A DNA stretch of 32,000 nt from Candidatus Omnitrophota bacterium (GTDB taxonomy: Bacteria > Omnitrophota > Gorgyraeia > Zapsychrales > JANLHA01). Position numbers and translations under genes: made by a program. Location of the stretch: NCBI GenBank assembly GCA_963662715.1, contig OY759724.1, forward strand, positions 480,001-512,000, in the 5' to 3' direction. The first letter of the stretch is position 1; each line of letters starts with the position of its first letter. Below, one piece after another: positions 9,758 through 31,530 of the stretch. The notes under the pieces were generated by a model. It had not been told where the DNA came from. It did no database searches and worked only from the letters and a program-made list of their open reading frames with translations.

Positions 9758-9768
9758 ACGACCGAGCC

Positions 9769-10542: not shown

Positions 10543-10567
10543 CGTAACGGGTGGCCTGGAGAGCCTT

Positions 10568-11938: not shown

Positions 11939-11939
11939 A

Positions 11940-12542: not shown

Positions 12543-12658
12543 ATTATGCCCTCACAAACACTATCCCCTCGTCAACTTACGGCCGTATCCCTTCCGGGCA
12601 GCAACAAGCACAGCCGCTCTTCGGGGACTCCCCCCGAAGATAGAGACAATATCGCCGG

Positions 12659-14348: not shown

Positions 14349-15125
14349 ATGAATCTTACTAAAGAACTAGAAATATCCCAAACAGCCGCACAGCGGGCCG
14401 CGGAAGCCATTTTAGACATATATCACGGCCGGGCATTTCAAGTCGAGATGAAAGACAATAAAAGCCCGCTGACTTCAGCCGACAAGAAAGCCAATGACAT
14501 TATTGTTAAAACCCTCTCCGAAACCTTCCCGGACTATGCGCTGCTGTCTGAGGAATCCCAAGACGACCGCCGCCGGTTAGCCAATAAATGGTGTTGGATT
14601 GTCGACCCTCTGGACGGCACGAAGGAATTCATAAAAAGAAACGGGGAGTTCACGGTCAATATCGCGCTTTCCTATGAAAACAGGGCCGTGCTCGGGGTGA
14701 TCTATGTCCCGGTGACGCACGAAATGTATTATGCGGTGAAAGGTCAAGGGGCCTATCATGTGAAAAACCATCATGCTTGTAGGATTTATGTTTCCGAGCG
14801 GAAGAAAGACATACGGCTTGTCATGAGCCGGTCACATGCCTCGGAACAGCTGCAGCGTGTTATCGATAAAAACGCGATCACCGATATCAAAAAATCCGGC
14901 AGCTCTTTAAAGGGGTGCCTGGTGGCCCAGGGCGCAGCAGAGATTTATTACCGCTTCAACCCCACGATGGAATGGGATACGGCGGCGATGCAGTGCATTG
15001 CAGAAGAAGCCGGAGGGATTTTCCGGCAATTGGATGACTCCGAAATGTTGTATAACAGGGAAAACAGCTTAAACAGCCGGGGATTCTATGTCCTTAACTG
15101 TGCGGACAACAAACTGGAACTCTGA
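14349..15125 (+). CDS. cysQ: 3'(2'),5'-bisphosphate nucleotidase CysQ (inositol monophosphatase superfamily)
   Basis: LSEES (metal-binding E), WIVDPLDGTKEF (the IMPase DPxDGT motif), and WDTAA near the C-terminus. It is divergent from the cysC-cysD-cysN genes. Confidence 0.85.
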   Translation: MNLTKELEISQTAAQRAAEAILDIYHGRAFQVEMKDNKSPLTSADKKANDIIVKTLSETFPDYALLSEESQDDRRRLANKWCWIVDPLDGTKEFIKRNGEFTVNIALSYENRAVLGVIYVPVTHEMYYAVKGQGAYHVKNHHACRIYVSERKKDIRLVMSRSHASEQLQRVIDKNAITDIKKSGSSLKGCLVAQGAAEIYYRFNPTMEWDTAAMQCIAEEAGGIFRQLDDSEMLYNRENSLNSRGFYVLNCADNKLEL

Positions 15126-15265
15126 ATCTAAGAAATAACATTCCAACCTTTTACTGGGCCCACCTATAGTACCACTACTATAAACGACAATACATTAGTT
15201 AAGATTATTTGCCTTAAGATATCGCGGAAGGTCTCATGAAATGGGTCAAAGAGGATTCTTTTCCG

Positions 15266-17068
15266 TTAAGAAGATAAATTGGTATGAATCAATTCTAATA
15301 TTTTCTCAACCACTTGCTCTCGCGGACTGTGTTCTGCAACATGCAAATCAGCCATCCCGGATGAGGAATCCTCATCCCCCACCCAGACCGTTTTGATCTG
15401 GTCGTCATCAATCGAGGTATGAATGATCTCCAGGTCAGACTTTTGCAGCTCTATCGCCGTTATAATCAGTATTGTCCCCATATTCAACATGATGTTGGCG
15501 ACCTCCGCAAGCCGGCGGAAATGTTCCGGGTGAGTGTCGGGATCATTCGTTAAATCAGCATCCAGACCGTGAATGACGTTACCGATCCCCAAGAAGTAAA
15601 CCAGCTTTCCCTGCATAAAGAGCCTTTCCTCCAAGGCCCGGGCTATTTCTTTGCGAGGGGCATCCCGCCGTCCGGTTATTAAAATCAAAGCGGCTTTCTG
15701 CCCATATCTTTCAAAACGCTGCTCCCGGGAAATATTGCTCATAATCCACCGGTAATTGCGTTCGATGACCATTTGCCTGACCTGGGATTGGGCGTCCTCG
15801 AGCGCCTCATAAATAATCCCGCCGCCGGATATGTTGTTTTGGTCAACAATAACGAATCTGCTGGTCGGGCTTATTCTGTCAGCCAGATCAAAGGCGATGG
15901 CCCGCGGCATTTTCAAAATGCACTTTGCCACCTCGTGGCGGGCAATCTTCTGGGCCGTATCAGTGCTGTCCAGGTTGGACGCGTTGAGGACTTGTTCTAT
16001 TTTTTCAATCTCTACCGGGACTTTCATAGTCCCGAGTTTGAGATGATATGTTTTACCCAGCTCCATGGGAGCCCGTCCCATCCAGAATAAATTAACCTTA
16101 ATTCTGGAGGTGACCTCCGGGGGATGGCCATGAAAAGCGGTTAACATTTCTCCTCTTTTAACATAAATCTGCTCGGTTAACGTCAGTCCAACAGCATAAC
16201 CGGCCCCGATCCCCGGCACAGCAGGCTGGTTAAACATTTCAATGGATTTGACATAGCTCTTCTTGCCGGAGGGATAAAAAACAACTTCATCCCCCACGTT
16301 GACGGTTCCGGTACTGATCGTTCCGCTGATGATACGGCGGTCATCCTGGAACTTCGTGAATTTATAAATATCCTGGACCGGCATCCGCAACGGCAAATTT
16401 TCATCAATATCCTTTTTATGAAATTCATCTAATATTTCAAAGACGGTTTTCCCGAAGTACCAGCTTAAATTCTCCTGCCGTTCGGAAATCATATCTCCCT
16501 CCCGTCCGCTGACGGGGATAAAACATGTCGCCTGAATTCCAATCTTTTCCAAAAATTCCTGATACTGTTGACTGATTTGTCTGAAAACATCCTCCTCATA
16601 GGAAACGAGGTCCATCTTGTTCACGAGGACAGCGACCTGTTTTATTCCCAGCATAGACAGCATGTAGCCGTGTCGGCAGGAATTCTCCTGAACCCCCTCC
16701 TTGGCGTCGATCACTAAAAGGGCCGCTTCGGCCCGCGCAGCCCCGGTGACCATATTCTTCAAGAACTCGATATGTCCCGGAGCATCAATAATGATGTAGT
16801 GGCGTTTGGACGTCTTAAAAAAAACCCTGGCAGAATCTATGGTAATGCCCTGGGCTTGTTCATCCTTTAAAGCGTCTAACAGAAAAGCATACTCGAAGGG
16901 TTTGGAATTATTTTCACATTGCTGACGGACCTGCTCAAGCTTCCCCTGGGGCAGAGAGCCGGTATCTGCCAGCAGGCGGCCCACGATAGTGCTTTTGCCG
17001 TGGTCAACGTGTCCCACAATAACGATATTCATGAATTGAGATGTCATAATATTAAAGAGTTGCCGCAA
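15266..17068 (-). CDS. cysN: Sulfate adenylyltransferase subunit 1 (CysN GTPase) fused to a degenerate APS-kinase-like C-terminal domain
   Basis: GTPase motifs [14 protein letters not shown] and NKMD, followed by EF-Tu-like beta-barrel domains. The last 165 aa or so align to CysC ([10 protein letters not shown] vs RRVGEVANLM), but the catalytic motifs are replaced. It lies directly downstream of cysD. The start is ambiguous: TTG at 17068, ATG at 17047 or ATG at 17032, none with a clear SD. Confidence 0.85.
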
Positions 17069-17129
17069 CTATATATTGATTAACCGAAACAATGTCCTGA
17101 ACAAAACTCGAAAGCCGGCCGGTTCCGCC

Positions 17130-18011
17130 TTACATATAACCTTCTCTTCTCAAGGTTTCCAGCCCCCCGCCGTCATCTTTATCCTGCGCCCGGCCGGAAC
17201 GCTCAGCGATATTGGAAAATTTACCGGTCCTTAATTCTTCGATGATATCATCGACGTTCTTAGCGGTAGATTCCACCGGGAGAGTACAGGGATAACAGCC
17301 GAGAGACCGGTAGCGCGTTCCCTTTCCCTGATCATAATACAGAGAAACGGTCGGAATCCCTTCTTTTTTGATATATTCCCAGATATTCAACTCCGTCCAA
17401 TCCAGCAAAGGATGAATCCTTAAATGTGTGCCTTCAGAAAAATCTGTATTAAACTGATCCCAAAATTCCGGCGGCTGATCGCCAATATCCCAAAGGCTCT
17501 CTTTGTCCCTGGGGGAAAAATACCGCTCTTTGGATCTTGAGCCCTCTTCATCGGAGCGAATGCCGACGATGACCCCGGTGAAGGACTCGGTGCCTGTATA
17601 TTCCTCATAAAGATCCTTGTCATGATTGAAACGGAAACGCGGCCCTGTTCCCTCCAGCGTACTCTTAAGGGCGTCGGTTTTAAGAAGCCGGCAGCAGCGC
17701 AGACGGTCCACTTGTCCGTCCGGAAAAGTTTGTTTTTCTGCCAGAGCCGCCTGATTCTGGCCGTAAAACATATTCAAATGCCATTCCCGGGTGAGCCGGT
17801 CACGATATTCGATCATTTCCGGGATCTTATACGCTGTGTCGATATGCACCAGGGGGATCGGGACGTGCCCGAAAAACGCCTTGCGGGCAAGCCACAACAG
17901 CACAGTACTGTCCTTGCCAATGGACCAGAGCATGCAAAGATTTTTAAAATTCGCATAGGCTTCTCTCAAGATATAAATACTTTTATTTTCGAGTTCTGTT
18001 AAATGGTCCAC
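17130..18011 (-). CDS. cysD: Sulfate adenylyltransferase subunit 2 (CysD, PAPS-reductase/ATP-PPase fold)
   Basis: [15 protein letters not shown]...[20 protein letters not shown] contains the SxGKDS PP-loop. ...[16 protein letters not shown]... and the C-terminal [20 protein letters not shown] are typical of CysD. Confidence 0.9.
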
Positions 18012-18039
18012 ATCCGGTGCCCTCGTTAAAAATACACGC

Positions 18040-18765
18040 CTATATATTCAAATAGCGGTCTATTTGTTTTTTAAGGCAAGAAAATGTTTCTTCTACCGTC
18101 TGCCCCTCGGTCTTGATAACAATTTCAGGGTTCTGCGGTCTTTCATAAGGATCATCGATACCCGTAAAATATTTGATTTCTCCGGCCCGAGCCTTTTTAT
18201 ATAATCCTTTAACATCACGCTGTTCACATATCTCAATCGGCGTGTCGACATGAATCTCCACAAAATTTTGACACAAATCGCGGACAAAATTGCGGGCATC
18301 CTGATAAGGCGAAACAAAGGAAGACACAACAATAACTCCGTTACGTTCAAGCATAGAAGCAAGAAATCCGACCCTCTTGATGTGATTATCCCGTTCTTCT
18401 TTTGTAAAACCGGTCTTAGGGAAGACCGAACGGACGACATCCCCGTCTAAACGCTCCACCCGCAATCCCTTTTCGGCGATATAATCGTAGGCCCGGCTGG
18501 CCAGCGCGCTTTTCCCGGACCCGGATAATCCCGTAAACCAGAGAACAAAAGGTTTGACGCTTTTTTTGCCGAAAGAGATTTTATTCCAGACACGTTCATG
18601 AAAGAAATATAAAATCATCTTTGCAATAATTTCAATGCCTCCCACAGACACGGCCAGGAAAAATCTTTTCGTAAAAAAATAAACAATGGTGCACGTCGTA
18701 ATCGTTGCCCAAATACGCCAGGAAATGGTCTTTAATATCGACCGGCTTCTTTTTTCAATATACAT
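18040..18765 (-). CDS. cysC: Adenylyl-sulfate (APS) kinase CysC with an N-terminal DUF2061-like two-TM membrane domain
   Basis: The kinase part has an intact P-loop [22 protein letters not shown] and [21 protein letters not shown]. The N-terminal 65 aa or so, [22 protein letters not shown]...[20 protein letters not shown], match the SWR...HERxW signature I recall for DUF2061. Confidence 0.85.
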
Positions 18766-19974: not shown

Positions 19975-20391
19975 TTAAACTTTCTGACAGCTGTCGCAAA
20001 TCCCGTCTAACTGCAGAAAATGGTCAACAATCCTGAAGCCATTGACACTTCTCTTGCGAAAAAGATCGCATCCCGCAATCTCTCCGACTTTGCCGCACCG
20101 GATACAGACAATATGATGATGGTGGACCCCGCCTTCAGCATGGCACAGGCCGTAATAACGGTTATTGTCAAACTTATGTATGCGGGTCAAAATCCCATAC
20201 TCTGTTAAAGACTCAAGATTCCGGTAAACGCCCGGCAGGCCGCACTGCCGAAATTTCCGGCGGAGTTTTTCATATACTTTCTCCGGAGTCAAAAACTTAT
20301 TGTTTTTATAAAAGATTTCGATAATAGCGATTCTTTTGGGAGTGCTTTTTAAAGGACAACTTTGAAGTTTTTCAAGATATCTGTCCAGCAT
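19975..20391 (-). CDS. Fur-family metalloregulator (Fur/Zur/PerR type)
   Basis: Winged-helix N-terminus (TPKRIAIIEIFYKN...LTPEKVYEKL), then HHHHIVCIRCGKVGEI (HHxHxxCxxCG) and a C-terminal CDSC. These are the hallmark Fur structural and regulatory metal sites. Confidence 0.85.
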   Translation of the reverse strand: MLDRYLEKLQSCPLKSTPKRIAIIEIFYKNNKFLTPEKVYEKLRRKFRQCGLPGVYRNLESLTEYGILTRIHKFDNNRYYGLCHAEGGVHHHHIVCIRCGKVGEIAGCDLFRKRSVNGFRIVDHFLQLDGICDSCQKV

Positions 20392-20425: not shown

Positions 20426-20453
20426 ATTATAAACCGAATCGGAGACCTGTCAA
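20426..20453 (-). promoter_or_regulatory. Sigma70-type promoter for the Fur-family gene (TTGACA-N16-TATAAT on the minus strand)
   Basis: Read directly. On the minus strand, TTGACA is at 20453-20448, followed by a 16-nt spacer and TATAAT at 20431-20426, about 35 nt upstream of the ATG at 20391. Confidence 0.5.
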
Positions 20454-20495: not shown

Positions 20496-21353
20496 TTAAG
20501 GAGTAATTAATTTTAAAGATTTAGGCAGAATCTTAATGTGAACAGACTTATACCTCAAAATCTCCCCGTCGCTTTGAAAATGCTGCTTCGGATCGGATGT
20601 GATTTCGATTTCCCGGACCTGCCAGTGCCTCAGGAAGCCACGAAAAATATTCTTTCTTCCTTCAAAAATATTTTTTAAATCCGTATGATTGATAATAATA
20701 ACGTCCAGCAACCCGTCATCGACCTGAATTTTAGATGATATGGAGATTCCCGGCAAACCCAAATTTCCGCTATTGGCGACAATGCACGCCAGGCCTCTTT
20801 CCTCGTACTCCTTCCCATCTAATGTTAACTGATACAGAGACGGAGTGGTTTTTAACGCCGCTTTTAAACTGTTCAGCGCATAGGCCAGCCACCCGATCCT
20901 GGTCTTGATATCCGGTTTTGTCTCTCTGACAACTTCGGCCTCAAAACCGCTGCTCACTCTTATCAAAAAATACTTGTGCCCCATCTGTCCCACATCAATC
21001 TCCCGGATACGATGCTGGCCCAGGCACAAATTAACCGCTTTCTCAACATCCTGGGCTATTCTTAATTCATTGGAGATCACGTTAGCCGTGCCGCCCGGGA
21101 GAATAAGCAACGGGGTTTTTCCGCCAATCAAGGCTCCAGCGGCTTCCTGGACCGTTCCGTCCCCGCCGTAAATAACGATCACATCCGCGTTTTCAGCAAC
21201 CGAAAGCTTCACAAACCGGGAAACATCCTCTTTGTTTTTAGTGACGTGCACGTCCCAGGACACCTTCTGGCGGGACAACACTTTATTTAAAGTGTAAAGG
21301 ACCGGGTATTTCATGCCCGATGAGGGATTTATGATAATGCTTAACCGTTTCAT
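20496..21353 (-). CDS. DAGK-catalytic-domain lipid kinase (YegS/BmrU/DgkB/sphingosine-kinase fold), copy 2
   Basis: LSIIINPSSG, VIVIYGGDGTVQEAAGAL (GGDGT motif) and LLILPGGTANVISNEL (GT.N motif). 285 aa. Confidence 0.8.
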   Translation of the reverse strand: MKRLSIIINPSSGMKYPVLYTLNKVLSRQKVSWDVHVTKNKEDVSRFVKLSVAENADVIVIYGGDGTVQEAAGALIGGKTPLLILPGGTANVISNELRIAQDVEKAVNLCLGQHRIREIDVGQMGHKYFLIRVSSGFEAEVVRETKPDIKTRIGWLAYALNSLKAALKTTPSLYQLTLDGKEYEERGLACIVANSGNLGLPGISISSKIQVDDGLLDVIIINHTDLKNIFEGRKNIFRGFLRHWQVREIEITSDPKQHFQSDGEILRYKSVHIKILPKSLKLITP

Positions 21354-21475
21354 AAAATATAATAATGTTTTATTTCTAAATCTTTTTCTGACAGCCCACC
21401 TTCAGAATACACCACATCTTTTTTCGGGATCGAAAAAAAGACATCGGGATGCGTTTCGGCTTTATGCCGGCTCTT

Positions 21476-21868
21476 TCAGGCCCGCAGACTCTTATAGGAA
21501 ATAAAAAAGATAATCATAAAAATCAGATCAAAGAATGCAAACGGGACCCAAATCCAGGGCATTTGACCTGCCAGCCAGTGCGGGAATACGACTAAGCAGT
21601 AGGAGAGCTTAATCAGGACAGCATAAATGATAAGACTCCTGTTGGCAAGGGGGTCCCTGGCGATATTAAAAAGCATATAGGCGAAAATGACCAAAATGCA
21701 GGCCGGGAACTGGACATACCCGATATGATTGGGCGGGGGGATCTGTACGGCATGAAAAATGGCCAGCGGCGCAATAAGAAAAGCGGCTCCGAGAATACCG
21801 TCATAAAACGCTGCCACGATATAAAAGGGTTTGATCCATTTAGGGATATTCATATTTTCCTCTTTCAT
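21476..21868 (-). CDS. Small 4-TM membrane protein of unknown function, within the lipid operon
   Basis: 130-aa ORF with four hydrophobic helices, lying between the UbiA-family gene and the second lipid kinase on the same strand. An alternative start at Met6 (21853) has AGAGGA upstream. Confidence 0.55.
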   Translation of the reverse strand: MKEENMNIPKWIKPFYIVAAFYDGILGAAFLIAPLAIFHAVQIPPPNHIGYVQFPACILVIFAYMLFNIARDPLANRSLIIYAVLIKLSYCLVVFPHWLAGQMPWIWVPFAFFDLIFMIIFFISYKSLRA

Positions 21869-21903
21869 TTTTTATTTATAAAATATTGTATCAATTTTTT
21901 CCG

Positions 21904-22875
21904 CTAAGCCAAAGCATCTTTATGAAAATCAAATAACCAGCCAATAAGGACAAAATTGATCAGGTAAAGCATCCCGGAAAGAAACGGATGCAGCAAAGCT
22001 ATAAAACCGGTCTCATAGAGTACCGCGCCCCTGAATGTCCATTTCAGCGAGTAATATGTCTTTTCACCGTGTGCGTTCCGAAAAAACAACACGGCCGTGT
22101 ACTGCATGATCAGAAAAGTCAATACCATCAATCCCGTAAAAAAGGGATTAATACAGCCTTTCCAGGGATCGAAAAAGAACATGAAAACAACAATCCCGAA
22201 GGGAAGGCTGCTCATCATAACGTTCAGATATTTTGCTTTTCCGGGAGACAACTTGACAACAATCGTTTTGATCCCGGCCGCCTTATCCCCCTGATAATCT
22301 TTAAAATACGTATAAAAAGCGACTGCCACATTCATGAGAATCACGCCTAAAGCCAGGACAGCTAACTGAGCATCCGCCATAATTTCCAGCCCTTTTCCGT
22401 TCAAACACATGGCACCGTAATAAAGACACGGCGCAACAAGACAGCCAAAAACAATATTCCCCAGGATAAGAATTCTTTTGGAATATTCATAAACGATATT
22501 GAGGAGAAAAACGAGCACATACAGGGTTAAAGCATATGGATTTAATAGAAGCGTTATTCCGGCCCCCAATACAAATAATCCCGCGCTTATACCCACAGCC
22601 GAACCGACCGGAAGTCGTCCCGTGACAAGCGGCCGGCGGGGCGCATTGATTCTGTCTTCTTTAAGTCCCAACAGATCATTGATGACCTGGTTGACGCCCC
22701 ACCCCACAAAAACGACGGTCAAAACAAGCGCCGTTCTAAAAGGAGTGATCTCTGCCCCGCAGAATGCTATCCCCAGGCACCCTGTCATGCCGGAGATAAA
22801 AAACAAATACGGACGCATGGATTTTATATAATTTAAAATAACACTCCTGGAAAATATCATACTAGACCTTTTCAA
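21904..22875 (-). CDS. UbiA-superfamily prenyltransferase, DGGGP-synthase/chlorophyll-synthase-like subgroup
   Basis: First motif NDLLGLKEDRINAPRRPLVTGRL (compare NDxxDxxxDxxNxPxRPxxSG). Second motif FKDYQGDKAAGIKTIVV (DxxxDxxxGxxT). About 8-9 TM helices. The start overlaps the upstream fusion gene by 14 nt. Confidence 0.85.
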   Translation of the reverse strand: MKRSSMIFSRSVILNYIKSMRPYLFFISGMTGCLGIAFCGAEITPFRTALVLTVVFVGWGVNQVINDLLGLKEDRINAPRRPLVTGRLPVGSAVGISAGLFVLGAGITLLLNPYALTLYVLVFLLNIVYEYSKRILILGNIVFGCLVAPCLYYGAMCLNGKGLEIMADAQLAVLALGVILMNVAVAFYTYFKDYQGDKAAGIKTIVVKLSPGKAKYLNVMMSSLPFGIVVFMFFFDPWKGCINPFFTGLMVLTFLIMQYTAVLFFRNAHGEKTYYSLKWTFRGAVLYETGFIALLHPFLSGMLYLINFVLIGWLFDFHKDALA

Positions 22876-25225
22876 TCAGACGCATTTTTTTATACAGGGG
22901 GACCTCTTCCTTGTTTTGAAACTGCTCCATAAGCTGCAGCGCATCCTCACCCGTTACTGGGAATGCCGTAATCTTCTTCTCTTCTATATACCGGCGTATC
23001 CTGCCATGCTCGGAATTACACAGCCAACTTAGACACGGCTTCTTAAAATGTGCCCTCATACGGTCAAAAATCACAGAAAAAGGCTCCTCTTGAACATTGC
23101 CGCAGGAAACATTTAAAAATTCACAGGGCTGAATTTCTCCGTGAGCGTTCACATAAAAACGCTCGATTCCCCCGGCCGTGCATCCGAAGGCCTCGGGGGA
23201 AGATTCAAAAACCTGCATGGAAAGCGACGGGAAATCCCGAAGCTCCCTGGCCTTGTTCAAACGCCAGTGATCGGCGCAAAGACGGGCGATCAGCTCCCGA
23301 TCCATTAAAGTGTTCCCCCTCCGGAGCCATCCCCCGGCAGGTTTTTCATGAATAACCTGCACAAAACTGCAGCCTAGTTCCCTGCCAAGCTGCAATATCT
23401 TTTTTATGCCGTCATCCATTATCATCTCCCGGGAAGGACAGCAATTGATGACAGCCGTAACACCTGTATCTGCAAATATGCGGATCGCCTTGCAGGCGAT
23501 CCGAAAAGCTCCTTCAAAGCCCACAAACTCATCGTGCTTTTCAGCCTCCCAATGATGCAGGGAGACCATCACTCCGAAAAGTCCGGCCTGCCGGAGACGC
23601 CAGGCCTTTTCATAAGTTAATGTGTGCCCCGTGGTGTTCACCCAGACTTCCCTCTCAGAGTCCAGAGACCCGATGAGTTTTAGCAAACGTTCATATTTTA
23701 ATAAAGGTTCGCCGCCTTCGATATCAAACATACTTATACCGGCATGCTGAATATCACGGGCGAGCCGCAAGAGATCGGCTTCCGGCAGGTCTTCACCGGC
23801 GTCACGTTTTTGATAGCAGTGCCGGCAGTGATACCCGCAGGCTTTTGTCATGGAAAAAACAACTGTTGTCGGATAGGTTGCATCATCGGTGATCAAAAAT
23901 TTATCGATGGCTTTATAAAAAGCCCTGCTTGGAAAAGCCGGAAGATACAAATGTATTTTATAGACATTATTTATTTTTACGGCCTTGTTATACCCGAGGA
24001 CTTTCGAGAGGAGAAGCATTCTTTTAACGAAAAAAGCATACTGTTTCAAGGTTATCGCCCCCTTCAACAAACGGACGAAATACCGCAAAAAAATTGTCAG
24101 GCCCATTGTCACATCTAATAATATGCGGCCGAAACCGACAACAAACTGCTGTTGCAAGGGCCTCTGTCTGTCATAGGGGATTGGCAGGAAACCATTCTGC
24201 CGCCACCAGCGGACTGTTTCTGCGACACCCTGCTCCAGGGACACCGTCTGTTTAAAACCCAAAACATCCCCGGCTCTGGCCGTAGCATAAACATTATGAC
24301 AATAAAACATCTTGACCCGGGCCCGGGTCAAAAGAAAAGGTTCTTTGGCTCCCAGGAGCTTCGCCATAAGTTCCAAAAACACGGCTGAAGGATAAAAGAC
24401 CCACAAAGGGAGATATACCGGCGGTCTTATCCCTAAATTCCGGCAATATAAATTAAAATATTCCCGGATGTTCGGGGCCCGGTCATTACCCATGTTAAAA
24501 ACATGAACCCCGGATAAATCCTTTTCCAAGGCGAGCAGCATGCCCCGGACCAGATCTTTCACATGAATAACGTGAAATCTATTGGTGCGTCCCATCGGCA
24601 TGACCCGCATCCCCTGCAAGACAGCGCGGCAGAATTCATACGGCCCCGAATGAAACTCCCTGGGGCCATAAACCCAGACCGGACGTATCACGACCAAATT
24701 CAAATCACCTTCCCCGGCTATGCCAACGGCTTCCTGCTCCGCCAGCATTTTCGTTTCGCGGTAATAATTCATATCTGACGGAAAAATAGCCGACAGAAAA
24801 TATGGCATGTCCGGCCGGTAAGGGGCTTCTTCCGGCTTGGGCTTTTCTTCATCCTCTTCACCCAAAACAGCAATGCTGCTTACCAAAACAACCTTTTTCA
24901 CTCTTTGCTCCTTGGCCGCACGAACAACATTGCGGGTCCCCTGAACATTGATTTCATGAAAGTCTTTCTTCCGGCCCCAGTCAGAAGCCAAAGCGGCCAC
25001 ATGAAAAACGGCGTCACAGCCGCTCATCGCTTCCGTCACTCCGGCAGAGTCCCTAATATCCCCATAGCAAATTTTGATCTTGTCTACCGGGAGAAACCGC
25101 AGATCACTGCCCGGACGCAGCAGAACCGTCACCTCATATTGACCGGCCACTAAACGGTCCACCAGATGACTGCCGATAAACCCCGAAGCCCCGGTCACAA
25201 AGACTTTCCGTATTCCGCTGTTCAT
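22862..25225 (-). CDS. Fusion protein: N-terminal NAD(P)-dependent extended SDR (epimerase/dehydratase/3beta-HSD-like reductase), hydrophobic linker, C-terminal radical SAM domain with a Cys-rich SPASM/twitch-like extension
   Basis: SDR part: VFVTGASGFIGSHL (residues 8-21) and YRETK (Y155/K159, the YxxxK motif). Radical SAM part: CGYHCRHC = Cx3Cx2C (C463/C467/C470, encoded at 23816-23839), plus DIEGGEPLL. C-terminal part: FGCTAGG...GEIQPCEFLNVSCGNV...PCLSWLC. 787 aa with no internal stop. Confidence 0.85.
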   Translation of the reverse strand: MNSGIRKVFVTGASGFIGSHLVDRLVAGQYEVTVLLRPGSDLRFLPVDKIKICYGDIRDSAGVTEAMSGCDAVFHVAALASDWGRKKDFHEINVQGTRNVVRAAKEQRVKKVVLVSSIAVLGEEDEEKPKPEEAPYRPDMPYFLSAIFPSDMNYYRETKMLAEQEAVGIAGEGDLNLVVIRPVWVYGPREFHSGPYEFCRAVLQGMRVMPMGRTNRFHVIHVKDLVRGMLLALEKDLSGVHVFNMGNDRAPNIREYFNLYCRNLGIRPPVYLPLWVFYPSAVFLELMAKLLGAKEPFLLTRARVKMFYCHNVYATARAGDVLGFKQTVSLEQGVAETVRWWRQNGFLPIPYDRQRPLQQQFVVGFGRILLDVTMGLTIFLRYFVRLLKGAITLKQYAFFVKRMLLLSKVLGYNKAVKINNVYKIHLYLPAFPSRAFYKAIDKFLITDDATYPTTVVFSMTKACGYHCRHCYQKRDAGEDLPEADLLRLARDIQHAGISMFDIEGGEPLLKYERLLKLIGSLDSEREVWVNTTGHTLTYEKAWRLRQAGLFGVMVSLHHWEAEKHDEFVGFEGAFRIACKAIRIFADTGVTAVINCCPSREMIMDDGIKKILQLGRELGCSFVQVIHEKPAGGWLRRGNTLMDRELIARLCADHWRLNKARELRDFPSLSMQVFESSPEAFGCTAGGIERFYVNAHGEIQPCEFLNVSCGNVQEEPFSVIFDRMRAHFKKPCLSWLCNSEHGRIRRYIEEKKITAFPVTGEDALQLMEQFQNKEEVPLYKKMRLIEKV

Positions 25226-26151
25226 GAGACAATCACCTCTAAACTCTTTGGCAGCACCTCAATGGTTGCCGGGAGTTTCCCCCTCATGTCACCGTCGAAT
25301 TCAATAAAGACGTCCTCCCGCTCCGAACAAACTTCAACCTTTCGGCCATAACGCATGCCCGCATGTTTGTACTCCATGAAATCACCGACATACAGTTTAG
25401 GGACGTTCGCAAGCAATGAAAACAAGCTGCCTTTTCTTAATGAGAACAAAAAAAGCTTCCCGTCATCAGGAAGCACATCACTAAAGACTCTCATCCCGGA
25501 AGCCAGATACGGATCTTTACCGACGGTTAAATTGATTAAAGATGTGAAGTCCGTCTTTTCTCCGTCTATTTTCACTTTCAAATCAACACCCTGAAAATTC
25601 CAGACAGCTGTTAAGGAAGACACCAGCGTCCCCAGAAAATCCCCCAGGTATTTTCTATAACGTGAATTGGCCTTACCGGCGATATGCGGCCCAAGCCCCA
25701 CGTTGACGCTGCTGCCGAAATAAAACACTCTTTCGTCTCCGGCCAGGTCCCGGAAAGAGACTTTGCCCACATCAACGCTCCGGGTTCTGCCGGCCAACAA
25801 GGCTTCAAGGGCCTCATCAAGGCGGACAGGGATATGACAATACCGGTTAAAGTCAGGACTTGTTCCGACGTGCAGTACGCCCAATGTCCTGGACGCGGCC
25901 GGGCTGTTCTGCCGCAGGCCCGTTATCACTTCACAGATCGTGCCGTCACCTCCGACAGCCACCACCACATCATAATCCCTTTCCCCGGCCTGCCGTGATA
26001 TATCGACGGCTTCATCCTTTCTCGAAGTCATCTGATAATCAAAATCAACCTTCCGGAGCTTCATTTCGGAAATAATCCGCCGGCACTGTTTATACGCACC
26101 GCCTGATCTGGCCGTCGGGTTCATAACCAAAAAATACTTCAACGGAGCCAT
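25222..26151 (-). CDS. DAGK-catalytic-domain lipid kinase (sphingosine/ceramide/diacylglycerol kinase fold), copy 1
   Basis: FLVMNPTARSG, VVVAVGGDGTICEVITGL (GGDGT) and LGVLHVGTSPDFNRY (GT..DF). It overlaps the upstream AOS gene by 13 nt and the downstream fusion gene by 4 nt (ATGA). Confidence 0.8.
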   Translation of the reverse strand: MAPLKYFLVMNPTARSGGAYKQCRRIISEMKLRKVDFDYQMTSRKDEAVDISRQAGERDYDVVVAVGGDGTICEVITGLRQNSPAASRTLGVLHVGTSPDFNRYCHIPVRLDEALEALLAGRTRSVDVGKVSFRDLAGDERVFYFGSSVNVGLGPHIAGKANSRYRKYLGDFLGTLVSSLTAVWNFQGVDLKVKIDGEKTDFTSLINLTVGKDPYLASGMRVFSDVLPDDGKLFLFSLRKGSLFSLLANVPKLYVGDFMEYKHAGMRYGRKVEVCSEREDVFIEFDGDMRGKLPATIEVLPKSLEVIVS

Positions 26152-27329
26152 TCCGGCTTCTCCTGCTTTATCTCCTCAAACGCTGAAATCGTTTTATCGA
26201 TGTCCTCATCTTCCAGCAGGGCGTTCACCGTTAAACGGATCCGCGCCGTGTTCTTGGCGACGCTCGGAGGGATGAACGGGACGCCATAAATGCCCCGCTC
26301 GGAAAGCATTTTGGCAGCCAGGAACGTGTTTTCGCTGGTCTTAAACACAACCGACACCAGCGGGGTCGTTGAGCCGGTCAGGTTGAATCTCATCTGATCC
26401 AGGGCCTCATACAGCTTCCTGGCGAGCCGCATGATTTTTTCTCTTAGCCGGGGGTGATCTTCCACGTAGCGCAAAGAAGCGATGGTCGCTCCGGCCATAA
26501 CAGGCGGCAATGCGGTTGAATAAAAATACATCGGGGCCTTATAACGGAAGCCGTCAATAATATCGGCCTTGCCGGCGATAAACCCGCCAAACGTCCCGAC
26601 AGCCTTGCCGAAAGACCCGGTCATCAAATCCACATCCTGATAAGTGTCCGTCAGTTCAAGAATTCCCCGGCCTTCCCGCCCCAAGACCCCCAACCCGTGG
26701 GCATCATCAACGATCACAAAAGCGTCGTGCCTGCGGGCAACATCCGTGAGTTCTTTAAGCGGAGGGGTGTCTCCGTTGGTGCTGTAAAGCCCTTCCAGGA
26801 CAATAAACTTGACGCGATAATGACAACACCGCAAGAGGGTCTTCTCAAGTTTGTTCATATCATTATGCGGGAAAATCTTAAACGCCGCTTTCGATAAGGC
26901 CACACCGTTTAACAGGGATGAATGAATCTCTTTGTCGGCAATAATAACATCGTTCTCCCCGGCCATGAGCTGAAACAGGCTCATATTGGCCTGATAACAG
27001 GAAGGAAAGACCAAAGCATCTTCCTGTTTAAGAAAACGGGCCGTAGCCAGTTCCAGTTCCCGGTTGACAGCGGACTGTCCGACGACAATAGGGGTCCCGC
27101 ACAAACTCAAACCGAAAGTCTCTAAAATCTTCGTCGCCTCCTTCTTGATGACGGCATTATTAGCGATGCCCAGATAATCATTTGTTCCTAAAGAAACCAT
27201 TTTTCTGCCGTTAACGGTAATTTCCCGGGCCAGCCCGCTCTGAACGATCTGATAATAGGCGTTGAAGTTTATATCGTCTGCCAGCTTTTTATCAATGTAC
27301 AAGCTATCAATTAATTCTTTTTTGGACAT
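26139..27329 (-). CDS. PLP-dependent alpha-oxoamine synthase family enzyme (serine palmitoyltransferase / BioF / Kbl / cysteate-acyltransferase family)
   Basis: GTNDYLGI, DKEIHSSLL (the PLP-stacking His), VDDAHGLGVLG, and GSFGKAVG (the Schiff-base Lys). I placed the start at 27329 (MSKKELI...) because GAGGAG lies 6 nt upstream. The 41-codon extension in the ORF track has no homology-like features. Confidence 0.85.
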   Translation of the reverse strand: MSKKELIDSLYIDKKLADDINFNAYYQIVQSGLAREITVNGRKMVSLGTNDYLGIANNAVIKKEATKILETFGLSLCGTPIVVGQSAVNRELELATARFLKQEDALVFPSCYQANMSLFQLMAGENDVIIADKEIHSSLLNGVALSKAAFKIFPHNDMNKLEKTLLRCCHYRVKFIVLEGLYSTNGDTPPLKELTDVARRHDAFVIVDDAHGLGVLGREGRGILELTDTYQDVDLMTGSFGKAVGTFGGFIAGKADIIDGFRYKAPMYFYSTALPPVMAGATIASLRYVEDHPRLREKIMRLARKLYEALDQMRFNLTGSTTPLVSVVFKTSENTFLAAKMLSERGIYGVPFIPPSVAKNTARIRLTVNALLEDEDIDKTISAFEEIKQEKPEWLR

Positions 27330-27518: not shown

Positions 27519-27547
27519 AGTTTACCACTCAATTATTTATCTGTCAA
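27519..27547 (-). promoter_or_regulatory. Candidate sigma70 promoter for the lipid operon (TTGACA-N17-TAAACT, minus strand)
   Basis: Read directly. On the minus strand, TTGACA is at 27547-27542, followed by a 17-nt spacer and TAAACT at 27524-27519. This would give a leader of about 180 nt before the ATG at 27329. The -10 element is imperfect. Confidence 0.3.
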
Positions 27548-27718: not shown

Positions 27719-28042
27719 TTATTTAACGACATCATCCGCGGGCACAGTGAACATAACCCCCATGCCATCTTCTTCAAAATTAATTTTTTCTTCTTTAAGA
27801 ATGGCATAGAAATCTTTCAGGACATTTTCGTCTTCTATTAAAGCAAAAATCGTTTTGTTATGTTGCTTCTCCTGTCCGACAATTTTACGCAATCCCGCAA
27901 AAATAGGGACATCGTAAGCCAAGGCATGCGCCATGCCTTCAGAATCAATAATCGTCGCTCCGGTGATTCCGAGTTCAGCCATAATAGAAATAATGTCGTT
28001 CAGGAACTCCTCTTTATTAAGGACGATAAACAATAATTTCAT
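27719..28042 (-). CDS. PII-like (GlnB/DarA-fold) small signal-transduction protein
   Basis: 107 aa. MKLLFIVLNKEEFLNDIISIMAELGITGATIIDSEGM reproduces the beta-alpha-beta start of PII-family proteins (compare MKLVTAIIKP..L..V..AL...GI.G.TV..V.G.G). It starts 39 nt downstream of the CPA2 antiporter gene. Confidence 0.55.
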   Translation of the reverse strand: MKLLFIVLNKEEFLNDIISIMAELGITGATIIDSEGMAHALAYDVPIFAGLRKIVGQEKQHNKTIFALIEDENVLKDFYAILKEEKINFEEDGMGVMFTVPADDVVK

Positions 28043-28081
28043 ATATTCCTCCTAACCAATTTAATACACAAATGTGTGTTT

Positions 28082-29299
28082 TCAGGTACGGCGGCGATAA
28101 TTCATCAATTTCCCGACTTCGCCGGCTTTTTCTATTGCAATTTTAGTTGTCATCGGGCCAATGATTTCAAAAATAATAGTCGTGGCGGCAATCGTATTGA
28201 TAACCAAGGTCGCCACAGCTTCCCCCTCCGGCCCCAAAGCGGAGAATTCTTTTACCGTGATCAGGGCCAGACCGATAGCGACGCCTGCCTGAGATAAAAT
28301 ACCCAGGCCCAAATAATTCCTCACATTTTTATCAGCACGGCTGACTGTCGCCCCGAAGTAAGCCCCTCCGATAAGCCCCACGGTCCTGCCTATAATATAC
28401 AAAATTCCCAGAAGCCCCATGGACGGGAGCAGGTTAAGGTGTAAATGGGCGCCGGCCAGCACAAAAAAGAGCACAAAGATCGGTGCCGTAAGCCCTTCAA
28501 TGACATTGGCGGCCCTTCGGGATGCATGCAAGGATATGTTCGTAAGGACCAGCCCCACCATAAGATTAGTTAAAATGAGAGACAAGTGATATGCATTGCT
28601 TAACCCTGCACACAAAAAAATGGCCCCTAGCGTTATAACCAGAGTTTCGTTCTTTGAACGGACATGCCTCAAGACAAAAGCCAGCACCGCTCCTACCCCT
28701 GCACCTAATATCAACGATTCCACTATTTCGGCCACCGGTCCGACAAGAAACGATTCTGCCGTCATCATCTGAGCGCCCGTTATCATATTTTTGGCTAAAG
28801 CGGCGGCAAGACCGTAAATAATGATGGCCAATCCATCGTCCAGACCAACCACAGAAAGCAGGGTACTGGTTAAAGGGCCCTTGGCCTTATACTCCTGCAA
28901 AACGGCGACAGTACCCGCAGGAGCGCTGGCCGGCGCCATGGCTCCGAATATTAAGGCCAGATAACCTTTATGGGTCAAGAAATACACTAAAGCAGCTACA
29001 CAAAAAAAAGCAAAAAAAGACTCGGCAAAAATAATAGTGGCCAAACCCGCGCCCTGCCTTCTCAACACTCCCGCGCGCATCTCACTGCCGATAGTGAACG
29101 CGACTATGGCTAAGGCGATATCACTGATAATGCCCATACTGTCAACCAGATGGTCAGTGAATATCCCCAGGAAGGAAGGCCCTAATATCAGTCCGATAAG
29201 AATGTACCCCACGACCCCGGGGAATTTGAACCGGCCGACAATTTTACTGCCGGCGTAGCCCAGGATGAGGGCCAAGCCCATCAAAAATAAGATTTCCAT
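28082..29299 (-). CDS. Monovalent cation:proton antiporter, CPA2/Kef-type (Na_H_Exchanger domain only, no RCK/KTN domain)
   Basis: MEILFLMGLALILGYAGSKIVGRFKFPGVVGYILIGLILGPSFLG is the classic CPA N-terminus. 405 aa with about 12-13 TM helices, ending right after the membrane domain. Confidence 0.85.
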   Translation of the reverse strand: MEILFLMGLALILGYAGSKIVGRFKFPGVVGYILIGLILGPSFLGIFTDHLVDSMGIISDIALAIVAFTIGSEMRAGVLRRQGAGLATIIFAESFFAFFCVAALVYFLTHKGYLALIFGAMAPASAPAGTVAVLQEYKAKGPLTSTLLSVVGLDDGLAIIIYGLAAALAKNMITGAQMMTAESFLVGPVAEIVESLILGAGVGAVLAFVLRHVRSKNETLVITLGAIFLCAGLSNAYHLSLILTNLMVGLVLTNISLHASRRAANVIEGLTAPIFVLFFVLAGAHLHLNLLPSMGLLGILYIIGRTVGLIGGAYFGATVSRADKNVRNYLGLGILSQAGVAIGLALITVKEFSALGPEGEAVATLVINTIAATTIIFEIIGPMTTKIAIEKAGEVGKLMNYRRRT

Positions 29300-29317
29300 A
29301 ATAGTATCCTTACTATT

Positions 29318-29779
29318 CTAAACAGGTTCTTCAATCCTGTTAAAAGCTTTAATAATATCTTCCGCGCTGCTTGCACCAATGAGTGTGCCACGGAACTCTT
29401 CCTTTTTTAATATCCGCGTCAAATAGGCCAAGGCTTTCAAATATGTCCCCATATCTTTCTTCGGCGTCCCCAGCAGAAAGATCAGTTTAACGGGCTGATG
29501 ATCAATCGCGTCAAAATCAATACCCCGGCCAGACTTTCCAAAAGCAATGACAAGATTGTTTACGGCTTCTGTCCTGGCATGAGGCACGGCAATCTGATGT
29601 CCGATACCCGTTGTCATGGCGGCTTCCCGCTCAAAAACCTCTTGTAAAAACTGGTCAAAATCCTGGACTTCAGGAGAACCCTTCAGCAAGTCCGCCAATT
29701 CCCTGATCGCCTCTTCTTTGGTCGTTGCCTGTAAATCTGAGCAGATAAAATCTGCTTTTAAGTATTTAGATATTTCCAT
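29318..29779 (-). CDS. ptsN: PTS EIIA type-2 domain protein (PtsN / EIIA-Ntr-like regulator)
   Basis: 153 aa. The phosphorylatable His motif is TGIGHQIAVPHART; later VKLIFLLGTPK. AAAGGAG lies upstream of the ATG. It is the first gene of the antiporter operon. Confidence 0.75.
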   Translation of the reverse strand: MEISKYLKADFICSDLQATTKEEAIRELADLLKGSPEVQDFDQFLQEVFEREAAMTTGIGHQIAVPHARTEAVNNLVIAFGKSGRGIDFDAIDHQPVKLIFLLGTPKKDMGTYLKALAYLTRILKKEEFRGTLIGASSAEDIIKAFNRIEEPV

Positions 29780-30747: not shown

Positions 30748-31530
30748 CTATGCTCCGGCCACAAAAAAATAAAAAGCGGCAGCCGCCAGGACACGGTAAA
30801 CCCCGAAAGCCACAAAATTATTCCGCTGGATAAAATGCAATAAAAATTTGACCCCGGCCATAGCCACAACGAACGAGGTCACAAACCCTACAGCCAAAAA
30901 CATCATTTGTTCCGTGTTTAAAGAGACGAAACCAAAACTCTTAAACAAATCCAAAGCCGTTGCCGCAGTCATCGTAGGGACGGCCAGGAGGAAAGAGAAT
31001 TCCACAATCGTTTTGCGCCGCAGGCCCAAAACCAATCCTCCGACGATTGTGGCCGCTGACCGTGAGACACCGGGGACCATCGCCAAAGCCTGAAAAAAGC
31101 CGATCAAAACCGCGTCACGGTAAGGCAGACGGCTCAGATCGTCCTTGGCATCGGGTTTCTCCTGATAACGTTTCTCAAAAACGATCAGGAAAATCCCCCC
31201 CAGGAACAGCGCGCCCACCACGACCCCCGTGCTCCCCAAAAGAACCGTCTTGATGACCTTATAAAAAGCCAGCCCCATTATGGCCGTAGGGATAAAGGCC
31301 GCACAGATCCTCTTCAGGACCTCAATATTCACTAAGAACGACCGCGCATAAAGAACGACCACCGCTAAAATGGCTCCCATTTGAATCGCAATCTCAAAAC
31401 TCGTCAAAAAATCCGTCTGAGGAAGACCAAGAAGCTTGGCGGCAAGGATCAGATGCCCGGTTGAAGAAACCGGCAGGAATTCTGTTAACCCCTCAACAAC
31501 TCCTAAGATAAACGCGGAAAATATATTCAT
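30748..31530 (-). CDS. uppP: Undecaprenyl-diphosphate phosphatase UppP/BacA
   Basis: MNIFSAFILGVVEGLTEFLPVSSTGHLIL is the signature UppP N-terminal motif (EGxTEFLPVSSTGH). ...PGVSRSAATI is the second conserved motif. 260 aa with about 8 TM helices. Confidence 0.9.
   Translation of the reverse strand: MNIFSAFILGVVEGLTEFLPVSSTGHLILAAKLLGLPQTDFLTSFEIAIQMGAILAVVVLYARSFLVNIEVLKRICAAFIPTAIMGLAFYKVIKTVLLGSTGVVVGALFLGGIFLIVFEKRYQEKPDAKDDLSRLPYRDAVLIGFFQALAMVPGVSRSAATIVGGLVLGLRRKTIVEFSFLLAVPTMTAATALDLFKSFGFVSLNTEQMMFLAVGFVTSFVVAMAGVKFLLHFIQRNNFVAFGVYRVLAAAAFYFFVAGA

Follow-up and report, generated by a model that had tools for sequence, protein, structure and literature searches.

The stretch of DNA analysed here (the window; 32,000 nucleotides of contig OY759724.1 from a Candidatus Omnitrophota bacterium) contains at positions 21476-27329 a compact version, with five genes, of an uncharacterised gene cassette which is widespread among anaerobic prokaryotes. 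Its genes encode an alpha-oxoamine synthase (AOS), a predicted lipid kinase (kinase 1), a fusion of an extended short-chain dehydrogenase/reductase (SDR) with a radical S-adenosylmethionine enzyme (rSAM), a UbiA-family prenyltransferase and a small protein with four hydrophobic segments (4-TM protein). Most likely, the cassette makes a membrane-associated amino-lipid which carries an isoprenoid chain. The enzyme families are known, their combination and several signatures of the individual clades are new, and the pathway is real, conserved and apparently uncharacterised. We consider it highly probable that the genes form a genuine, functionally coupled biosynthetic unit.

All genes of the cassette are located on the minus strand, and the first four of them are linked by overlaps. 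The AOS gene (26139..27329; 396 aa; PF00155, E 1.7e-49), which encodes an enzyme dependent on pyridoxal phosphate (PLP), overlaps the gene of kinase 1 (25222..26151; 309 aa; DAGK_cat, PF00781, and YegS_C, PF19279) by 13 nt (26139-26151). A 4-nt ATGA (25222-25225) joins the latter to the gene of the 787-aa SDR::rSAM protein (22862..25225; PF01370/PF01073 and PF04055), and 14 nt (22862-22875) are shared by this gene and the UbiA gene (21904..22875; 323 aa; TTG start; PF01040, E 2e-28), for whose product eight hydrophobic segments were detected. The gene of the 130-aa 4-TM protein (21476..21868; segments from the hydropathy profile) comes last. The AOS start at 27329 is backed by a GGAG Shine-Dalgarno sequence 8 nt upstream and gives the recorded 396-aa product; homologues have 395-397 aa. 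Upstream of the cassette a promoter-like site (27519..27547, minus strand; TTGACA, 17-nt spacer, TG-extended TAAACT) was recognised by consensus match alone (10 of 12 positions, with TG before the second hexamer).

A second predicted lipid kinase of the YegS/BmrU type (kinase 2; 20496..21353, minus strand; 285 aa; PF00781 and PF19279) is encoded behind the 4-TM gene, after a gap of 122 nt without a convincing terminator. A perfect sigma-70 consensus (20426..20453, minus strand; TTGACA, 16-nt spacer, TATAAT; 12 of 12 positions) directly upstream of a fur-family gene (19975-20391) indicates a separate transcription unit behind kinase 2, and as this consensus belongs to the fur gene, the cassette ends at the latest before position 20453. 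Inside the operon, scans for terminators and promoters gave numbers of sites equal or close to those expected after shuffling, and an Rfam scan of the window gave no match at the gathering score. The original prediction, which was made from the letters of the window, had described six co-directional genes at 20496-27329, the three overlaps and intact catalytic motifs. The six open reading frames (ORFs) are indeed present, all on the minus strand, the overlaps were seen and recur in homologous loci, and Pfam confirms every domain that had been named (PF00155, PF00781 with PF19279 twice, PF01370/PF01073, PF04055, PF01040 and, weakly, PF13186). The translations hold SFGKA, GGDGT (both kinases), GASGFIGS, YRETK, CGYHCRHC, GGEPLL and DYQGDKAAGIKT. 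Of the proposed six-gene operon, however, only the five genes at 21476-27329 stand as a conserved unit, as kinase 2 lacks a counterpart in related loci (see below).

Related loci were retrieved by rSAM similarity alone. A scan of a genome collection with the fusion protein alone found three loci, a metagenome scan with conserved rSAM peptides yielded 235 relatives, from which 80 loci were kept, and 87 distinct loci were classified using the proteins of the window and those of one extended locus. Wherever the rSAM gene was flanked by 8 kb or more on both sides, the locus also contained genes for AOS, kinase, SDR and UbiA, apart from three loci which comprise rSAM and 4-TM genes only. The gene order of the window (type A: AOS, kinase 1, SDR::rSAM, UbiA, 4-TM) is repeated in Omnitrophota metagenome-assembled genomes (MAGs), in an uncultured Planctomycetia MAG and in unclassified contigs, and the same overlaps of 13, 4 and 14 nt occur in five loci (L001, L008, L009, L013, L014) at 50-67% amino-acid identity. 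The core set of AOS, kinase, SDR, rSAM and UbiA is found in at least five gene orders. Type A' consists of a beta-ketoacyl synthase (KS), an AOS fused to an acyl carrier protein (ACP::AOS), kinase 1, SDR, rSAM and UbiA; type B of UbiA, OYE, ACP, AOS, kinase 1, a ThiL-like protein, KS, SDR and rSAM, with type C being a cyclic permutation of it; type D of UbiA, rSAM, kinase 1, ThiL-like, OYE, AOS and SDR; and type E of UbiA, OYE, MMPL, KS, ACP, a DH-like protein, AOS, SDR, rSAM, kinase 1 and ThiL-like. That the same families are retained through repeated reshuffling of genes is a classical signature of functional coupling.

Gene fusions point in the same direction. The SDR::rSAM fusion, whose co-occurrence with AOS and UbiA had been proposed as a check, was found beside both in type A and in some type B loci. 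An exhaustive rSAM profile search (431 representatives at E <= 1e-30) revealed two UbiA::rSAM fusions (P0313 and P0314; 739 and 721 aa). As both SDR::rSAM and UbiA::rSAM proteins exist, the rSAM enzyme probably works beside the SDR as well as beside the membrane prenyltransferase. The earlier view of the genes as one functional unit is thus borne out by their co-occurrence in shuffled orders and by three kinds of fusion. In the same search, a more distant relative (P0379, 794 aa) was found which combines a PlsC-type acyltransferase with rSAM, and a 1467-aa protein (P0306) has an N-terminal rSAM domain and DUF362 near its C-terminus.

Accessory families in the clusters of other lineages, as recognised with Pfam and NCBIfam, are a FabF-like KS, an ACP, a DH-like protein, an OYE reductase, a ThiL-like kinase and sometimes an MMPL/HAE3 transporter. 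Homologues of ThiL, OYE, KS and ACP were sought in the window and none was found. The ThiL-like gene encodes an AIRS protein with thiamine-phosphate kinase as its top score (130 bits); it is present in 45 of the 92 first-fetched loci (duplicates included) and directly follows the lipid kinase gene in types B, D and E. The KS of the sister clusters reaches 272 bits with FabF as compared to 85 bits with PigJ. MarR or XRE regulators are encoded immediately upstream of the cluster in several loci. In one type D locus (L011, 16743-21269), genes of FixX-like, FixC/ETF-QO-like and fused electron transfer flavoprotein (ETF; FixAB-like) type come after the UbiA gene in the same orientation; these could supply electrons for the reduction of the prenyl chain or be there by coincidence.

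A search with the rSAM protein of Desulfosporosinus returned 911 clusters (at 90% identity) at E <= 1e-40. Cultured hosts are Desulfosporosinus orientis, D. hippei, D. fructosivorans, several Desulfosporosinus sp. strains and Petroclostridium sp. X23, while MAGs with rSAM belong to Desulfitobacteriaceae, Peptococcaceae, Dehalobacterium, Clostridia and Omnitrophota. In D. orientis DSM 765 the type B cluster is complete (CP003108.1, ~2,174,600-2,184,040), and the database names are all generic. A MAG labelled Nanoarchaeota (GCA_030636085.1; L094, 2260-7997) contains a type A' cluster without fusion, whose 4-TM homologue is encoded on the other strand; this reflects either a horizontal transfer into a DPANN archaeon or misbinning. 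The three loci mentioned above (L004, 10001-13845; L007; L087) contain a stand-alone rSAM together with a 4-TM protein that is 59-60% identical to that of the window, and no AOS, kinase or UbiA gene was found within 10 kb of their rSAM genes. In L004 the pair is followed by a PIG-L-family deacetylase and a GNAT gene, amid housekeeping genes.

When compared with NCBIfam (scores are given in bits together with the curated cut-off of the model, as score/cut-off), curated thresholds are reached by the kinases only, for a broad subfamily, and no cassette protein meets any equivalog cut-off. The AOS, with its PLP lysine at K242 (codon 26604-26606), scores 331/426 with bioF (TIGR00858), 304/460 and 264/493 with Kbl (NF005394, TIGR01822), 288/500, 266/640 and 219/670 with the bacterial Spt models NF047599, NF047600 and NF047603, and 214/428 with CqsA/LqsA (NF005526). 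Its best matches in the PDB are nearly tied (Sphingobacterium multivorum SPT (SmSPT) 216 bits, Thermus BioF/KBL 212 bits, E. coli KBL 203 bits), and the alignment to 8guh is gapless. The positions aligned to Asn52, His138, Ser185, Asp210, His213 and Lys244 of SmSPT and to its C-terminal Arg are kept in 39-40 of the 40 cluster AOSs. The active-site roles of these SmSPT residues, the C-terminal Arg apart, are taken from PMC10196870; the C-terminal Arg is common to all three reference AOSs. These residues define the AOS family as a whole and not Spt specifically. At the position aligned to SmSPT R82, which adjoins the loop contacting the amino-acid side chain, the 40 cluster AOSs have Pro (including that of the window), Ser or Ala and never Arg.

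Reading the amino-acid substrate of the AOS (Ser, Gly or Ala) from the best match was considered and rejected, given the near-ties between SPT, BioF/KBL and KBL and the conservation of family-wide residues only. The proteins closest to the AOS (49-56% identity) are ACP::AOS fusions, most of them from Omnitrophota, and it therefore appears likely that the enzyme takes an ACP-bound acyl group in the sister clusters. Close relatives bear generic NCBI names ('PLP-dependent aminotransferase') and, in a few cases, BioF- or Kbl-like JGI labels. A biotin (bioA/D/B) or tdh context was not found; the conserved neighbours of the AOS gene are those of lipid kinase, SDR, rSAM and UbiA. The possibility that the AOS nests within BioF or Kbl in an unconserved gene arrangement, which had been named as the case that would overturn the prediction, is not borne out, as the AOS stays below the BioF and Kbl thresholds and the architecture is conserved.

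Both kinases pass TIGR00147 (YegS/Rv2252/BmrU; cut-off 118.65 bits), kinase 1 with 125.7 and kinase 2 with 132.1 bits, and their closest structures are DgkB, BmrU and YegS, with DgkB-type kinases as the best PDB matches of kinase 1. The two are only 22% identical to each other. Orthologues of kinase 1 adjoin the AOS at 50-56% identity in type A loci and at 31-43% in the other types, which makes this kinase a conserved cassette member. For kinase 2 no counterpart was found beside the cassette in any of the 87 distinct loci; its membership in the operon was rejected, and it is a neighbour of the cassette, not one of its conserved parts.

The SDR domain of the fusion protein (~aa 1-347; 24185..25225, minus strand; PF01370, E 7.9e-40, and PF01073; GxxGxxG and YxxxK) scores 174/368 with HpnA, 137/580 and 108/580 with OleD-type 2-alkyl-3-oxoalkanoate reductases and 99/600 with SdmB. 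With no cut-off reached, it is assignable to the extended-SDR superfamily (PF01370) only. In types A', B, C and E a stand-alone SDR gene is located directly upstream of rSAM. The rSAM module (aa 352-787; 22862..24172, minus strand; PF04055, PF13353 and, below its cut-off, PF13186) opens with a hydrophobic helix (aa 362-380, by hydropathy), and stand-alone rSAM homologues begin at the start of this module. It has the features of a SPASM/twitch radical-SAM enzyme, namely the CX3CX2C motif (C463/C467/C470; 23816-23839), GGEP (residues 504-507) and C-terminal auxiliary cysteines (C682, C701 and C736, plus C619). The first two motifs as well as C682, C701 and C736 are invariant columns in two alignments.

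The nearest hidden Markov models (HMMs) of the rSAM module are AhbD and NirJ2 (~86/500, cut-off missed), and the closest solved structure by sequence is SkfB (33 bits). An AlphaFold2 model (pLDDT 87, pTM 0.90) was compared to the PDB with Foldseek. Of 140 matches with E <= 0.001, 50 were listed; the best of these were SkfB, SuiB, DesII, BlsE, anSME and MoaA at TM ~0.5, and sequence identities were 12-19%. The model suggests a generic SPASM/twitch fold. In the original prediction the rSAM had been likened to Tes and Mss. Yet, no Tes, GDGT-MAS or Mss chain was among the phmmer matches (E up to 1) or among the 50 Foldseek matches listed, and the idea of a Tes/Mss-like lipid cross-linker was given up, as it finds support neither in sequence nor in fold.

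For the UbiA protein the best NCBIfam scores were obtained with PRK12884 (93/269), with digeranylgeranylglyceryl phosphate synthase (DGGGPS; 79/353 and 74/296 for NF009522 and NF009521) and with ChlG (55/313), as compared to 37 bits for UbiA and 18 bits for MenA; its closest PDB structure is the DGGGPS of M. jannaschii (6M31, 56 bits). As the DGGGPS/ChlG models and not those of the quinone enzymes score best, an O-prenylating enzyme is favoured, and a grouping with quinone prenyltransferases, which would have spoken against the prediction, is not what these scores show. The earlier designation as DGGGPS-like holds at the family level only, given the distance to the cut-off and a variant first motif. 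This Asp-rich motif (NDLLGLKED; 22654-22680) reads NDxxGxxED instead of the canonical NDxxDxxxD, while the second motif (DYQGD, DxxxD) is present. All 53 non-identical cluster UbiAs contain NQ[IV]xND[YFL]LGxxED[RK]INAPxRP and keep the second motif KDYxGD. Of the UbiA::rSAM relatives one has the canonical NDxxDxxxD and another NDxxNxxED, and as Asp or Asn thus takes the place of Gly there, this Gly probably marks the clade and not a function. Neither geranylgeranylglyceryl phosphate synthase (GGGPS) nor glycerol-1-phosphate (G1P) dehydrogenase turned up in Pfam scans of the larger window ORFs or among the recurrent families of the loci, a result that does not come from a dedicated search.

The 4-TM protein has no Pfam or NCBIfam match, and Pfam at E up to 10 gave noise only. 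Its homologues (47-66% identity) follow UbiA in type A and the stand-alone rSAM in L004, L007 and L087. They were found only with the rSAM sub-clade of the window, i.e., in types A and A' and in the rSAM-only loci, and the 4-TM protein would therefore be a partner or accessory of the rSAM specific to this sub-clade. Its earlier placement in the operon is correct for type A loci and limited to one sub-clade.

From these domains, residues, gene overlaps, co-occurrences and fusions we infer the substrates, the order of the steps and the lipid nature of the product as follows. The AOS would condense an amino acid with a fatty acyl-thioester to a long-chain alpha-amino ketone, the acyl group being delivered on a dedicated or fused ACP in the relatives. 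The extended-SDR domain would reduce the ketone to an amino alcohol, of which the DgkB/YegS-type kinase would phosphorylate a hydroxyl. The DGGGPS/ChlG-related UbiA protein could then use a cellular prenyl diphosphate to attach a polyprenyl chain to the phosphorylated amino alcohol, giving a two-tailed lipid with a phosphate head, and the membrane-anchored SPASM/twitch rSAM would perform one further radical step on the same lipid, for which dehydrogenation, deamination, decarboxylation and C-C bond formation are candidates. A lipid product is favoured because UbiA is an integral membrane protein, the rSAM carries a hydrophobic helix and the kinase falls into a lipid-kinase subfamily. The additions found in the extended clusters (ACP, FabF-like KS, DH-like protein, OYE and sometimes MMPL/HAE3) and the distant fusion of rSAM and PlsC also indicate a lipid context.

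This specific scheme of AOS, SDR reduction, phosphorylation, prenylation and radical step is offered tentatively, its prospect of being right as a whole being somewhat below even. It agrees with the earlier proposal of a keto-amine that is reduced, phosphorylated and prenylated in so far as the enzyme families for it are present, which makes it plausible; the chemistry itself was and stays a deduction. The absence of a ceramide-synthase N-acyltransferase, which had also been pointed out, is confirmed: none is encoded at 20496-27329, and no acyltransferase family recurs among the 87 loci. More doubtful is the wider idea that the product represents an unknown class of membrane lipids, with a sphingoid-type (amino-alcohol phosphate) backbone, an ether-linked isoprenoid where ceramides have their N-acyl chain and a tailoring by rSAM, which would be widespread in anaerobes (Omnitrophota, Planctomycetota, Desulfitobacteriaceae, possibly DPANN).

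Several observations weigh against the proposed scheme. The ThiL-like kinase adjoins the lipid kinase in most other lineages, which suggests a diphosphate intermediate that the scheme does not need. The MarR and XRE regulators encoded next to the cluster are compatible with a facultative secondary metabolite as well. The first motif of UbiA is non-canonical, and the SDR could instead be an oxidative or decarboxylating enzyme of the 3-beta-hydroxysteroid dehydrogenase type. In the absence of Arg at the position of SmSPT R82, the pocket of the AOS may differ from those of all characterised AOSs, and with the enzyme being about equidistant from SPT, BioF and KBL, neither the amino acid nor the length of the acyl chain appears readable from its sequence. 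Finally, in the genomes of L004, L007 and L087 either the rSAM acts on a common lipid or its partners are encoded elsewhere.

The ThiL-like gene is also central to an alternative which we regard as unlikely, and in which the alcohol formed by AOS and SDR would be phosphorylated twice, by the lipid kinase and then by the ThiL-like enzyme, so that the resulting diphosphate becomes the donor that UbiA transfers to another nucleophile. Double phosphorylation to a donor is the logic of thiamine, methanofuran and phytol salvage, and UbiA enzymes are established to bind a diphosphate. Together with the frequency of the ThiL-like gene and its position behind the lipid kinase in types B, D and E, this speaks for such a route, in which the variant NDxxGxxED could reflect an unusual donor and the KS and ACP::AOS pairs of type A' could first build a hydroxymethyl-pyrrole-type ring in the manner of PigJ/PigH. 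However, the window and all type A and A' clusters have the same UbiA motifs without a nearby ThiL-like gene, types A and D lack KS and ACP, and ionisation would require an allylic or benzylic alcohol, to which nothing points. As the compact clusters without ThiL keep identical UbiA motifs, we rank prenylation of the phosphorylated backbone above its use as a donor; the comparison favours a UbiA enzyme that would need only a monophosphate and a normal prenyl diphosphate. It is likewise improbable that the product of the cassette is, instead of a structural lipid, a secondary metabolite or signal which is exported and of low abundance, for example a prenylated CqsA/LqsA-type alpha-hydroxyketone or amino-ketone. 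AOS and reductase, the core of alpha-hydroxyketone autoinducer synthesis, are present, and the CqsA model gives 214 bits, which is far from its cut-off of 428. MarR or XRE regulators immediately upstream, the MMPL exporter embedded in type E clusters and the patchy and shuffled gene content, which is typical of biosynthetic gene clusters, would suit such a compound, but the cluster has no conserved cognate sensor kinase next to it, and the membrane-embedded UbiA, the membrane-anchored rSAM and the lipid-kinase family suit a membrane-resident product equally well.

A divergent version of a known pathway, either bacterial sphingolipid/ceramide-phosphate synthesis (Spt, CerR, ceramide kinase) or the synthesis of archaeal-type diether lipids (DGGGPS), is very unlikely. 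Bacterial SPT is the best PDB match of the AOS, the epimerase-family SDR and the DAGK-fold kinase parallel CerR and ceramide kinase, and DGGGPS is the best match of UbiA. Yet, all three Spt models are missed widely, no ceramide-synthase-type acyltransferase is conserved in any locus, neither GGGPS nor G1P dehydrogenase appeared in the ORF scans of the window or in the family clustering of the loci, UbiA misses the DGGGPS-type cut-off (93/269) and has an altered first motif, and the conserved rSAM would be without a role in either pathway. That the genes are ordinary, unrelated housekeeping genes (BioF, a sugar epimerase, a quinone or haem prenyltransferase) which are neighbours by chance can practically be dismissed. 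The AOS has its top NCBIfam score with bioF, the SDR matches sugar-epimerase families and the rSAM matches AhbD/NirJ, but all these scores are far below the equivalog cut-offs, and no bioA/B/D, haem or sugar genes are conserved nearby. The recurrence of the five families in loci of several phyla, despite shuffling and in three kinds of fusion, effectively refutes this explanation. A membrane-associated, prenylated amino-lipid remains the preferred product.

On the upstream side of the cassette, the minus strand (27719-29779) encodes a P-II-like 107-aa protein (below the Pfam threshold), a CPA2-type cation/proton antiporter and a protein with a phosphotransferase system EIIA-2 domain; the undecaprenyl-diphosphate phosphatase BacA is encoded at 30748-31530. 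Downstream of the cassette and the fur gene there is a block for the synthesis of 3'-phosphoadenosine 5'-phosphosulfate (PAPS; 14349-18765), which comprises an adenosine 5'-phosphosulfate (APS) kinase with an N-terminal DUF2061 membrane domain (18040-18765), CysD (17130-18011) and a CysN::APS-kinase fusion (15266-17068), all on the minus strand, and a CysQ-like gene of the inositol-monophosphatase family (14349-15125) on the plus strand. This block could feed the sulfation of envelope molecules; a link to the cassette was not seen in other loci. An envelope glycosylation cluster (8801-14104) contains PMT_2-type glycosyltransferases (12659-14104 and, as a weak match, 10568-11938), a family 2 glycosyltransferase (GT2; 8801-9757) and a SAM methyltransferase (9769-10542). 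The plus-strand gene at 5146-7383 encodes an MMPL/HAE3 RND transporter with weak HpnN-like similarity; a role of this protein as the exporter of the cassette product was considered and found to be without support (21% identity to the type E MMPL). A nickel/cobalt uptake unit on the minus strand (237-2716) consists of NikR (2321-2716), a DUF4198 protein (1438-2268), CbiM (836-1432) and a NikL-family energy-coupling factor subunit (237-845).

A lipid product would extend the membrane-lipid repertoire by a new combination of backbone and tail, and it could provide new biomarkers for anoxic sediments, in which orphan lipids are abundant. With a DGGGPS-related enzyme adding isoprenoid tails in bacteria, it would also be relevant to the 'lipid divide'. 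A lipid as proposed above would be, in chemical terms, a cross between sphingolipids and isoprenoid ether lipids of the archaeal type, tailored by a new membrane-anchored rSAM family. Whatever the product, an rSAM family of more than 900 clusters (at 90% identity) gains a defined genomic context, a UbiA clade with a variant metal/diphosphate motif is delimited, and an AOS clade distinct from BioF, Kbl, Spt, ALAS and CqsA is identified. With the extended cluster being present in the cultured D. orientis DSM 765, the question is directly testable.

The original prediction knew of no characterised pathway that combines these families, and literature searches aimed at the cluster, together with papers on Black Sea lipids, likewise gave no description of this gene combination, within an incomplete coverage in which an account in a subscription journal is possible. 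By their scores and matches, the cassette enzymes appear to fall outside Spt, BioF, Kbl, CqsA, DGGGPS, HpnA, OleD, AhbD/NirJ and Tes. Among SPASM/twitch enzymes (SkfB, SuiB, anSME, BtrN, DesII, BlsE, AhbD/NirJ, MoaA), the rSAM finds its nearest folds (among the 50 Foldseek matches listed) and, with AhbD and NirJ2, its nearest HMMs, and it shares with them the CX3CX2C motif, while its invariant C-terminal cysteines would suit an auxiliary Fe-S cluster. The substrates of DesII and BtrN are vicinal amino-alcohols, and such a group is what the AOS and SDR steps would create. Unlike these enzymes, to which it aligns at a TM of only ~0.5, the cassette rSAM has an N-terminal hydrophobic helical region of ~100 residues, is fused to SDR or UbiA and has no precursor-peptide or tetrapyrrole context. 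The KS and ACP-ACP-AOS architecture of PigJ/PigH makes a hydroxymethyl-pyrrole in the 4-methoxy-2,2'-bipyrrole-5-carbaldehyde (MBC) branch of prodigiosin synthesis. It is resembled by the FabF-like KS which precedes ACP::AOS in sister clusters; however, the window contains neither KS nor ACP, other prodigiosin genes are missing, and the KS is nearer to FabF than to PigJ.

DGGGPS and ChlG/BchG O-prenylate a lipid or pigment acceptor and do not C-prenylate an aromatic ring. Archaeal DGGGP synthase (6M31) and ChlG/BchG are the best sequence matches of the cassette UbiA, and the acceptor of DGGGPS, a monophosphorylated lipid with one tail, parallels the proposed phosphorylated amino-alcohol. The cassette enzyme differs from them by its score (93 bits as compared to cut-offs of 269-353) and by NDxxGxxED in 53 of 53 proteins, and from DGGGPS also by being bacterial and encoded beside an AOS, with no GGGPS or G1P dehydrogenase having turned up in the scans described above, which were not dedicated to them. 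In bacterial sphingolipid/ceramide-phosphate synthesis (Spt, ACP, CerR, bCerS and Caulobacter CpgB; Sphingobacterium and Bacteroides Spt), the cassette is matched by the full SPT-type catalytic set of its AOS, by the ACP beside or fused to the AOS in its relatives, by an epimerase-family SDR that could reduce a 3-keto group and by a soluble lipid kinase of the DAGK fold. It is unlike this synthesis in that its AOS is not an Spt equivalog and lacks the Arg of SmSPT R82, that no ceramide synthase is present and that UbiA and rSAM are obligatory; to our knowledge, neither a UbiA prenyltransferase nor a radical-SAM enzyme occurs in the described sphingolipid pathways. By analogy, the cassette would be most like a bacterial sphingoid-base synthesis which has been joined to a DGGGPS-type prenylation.

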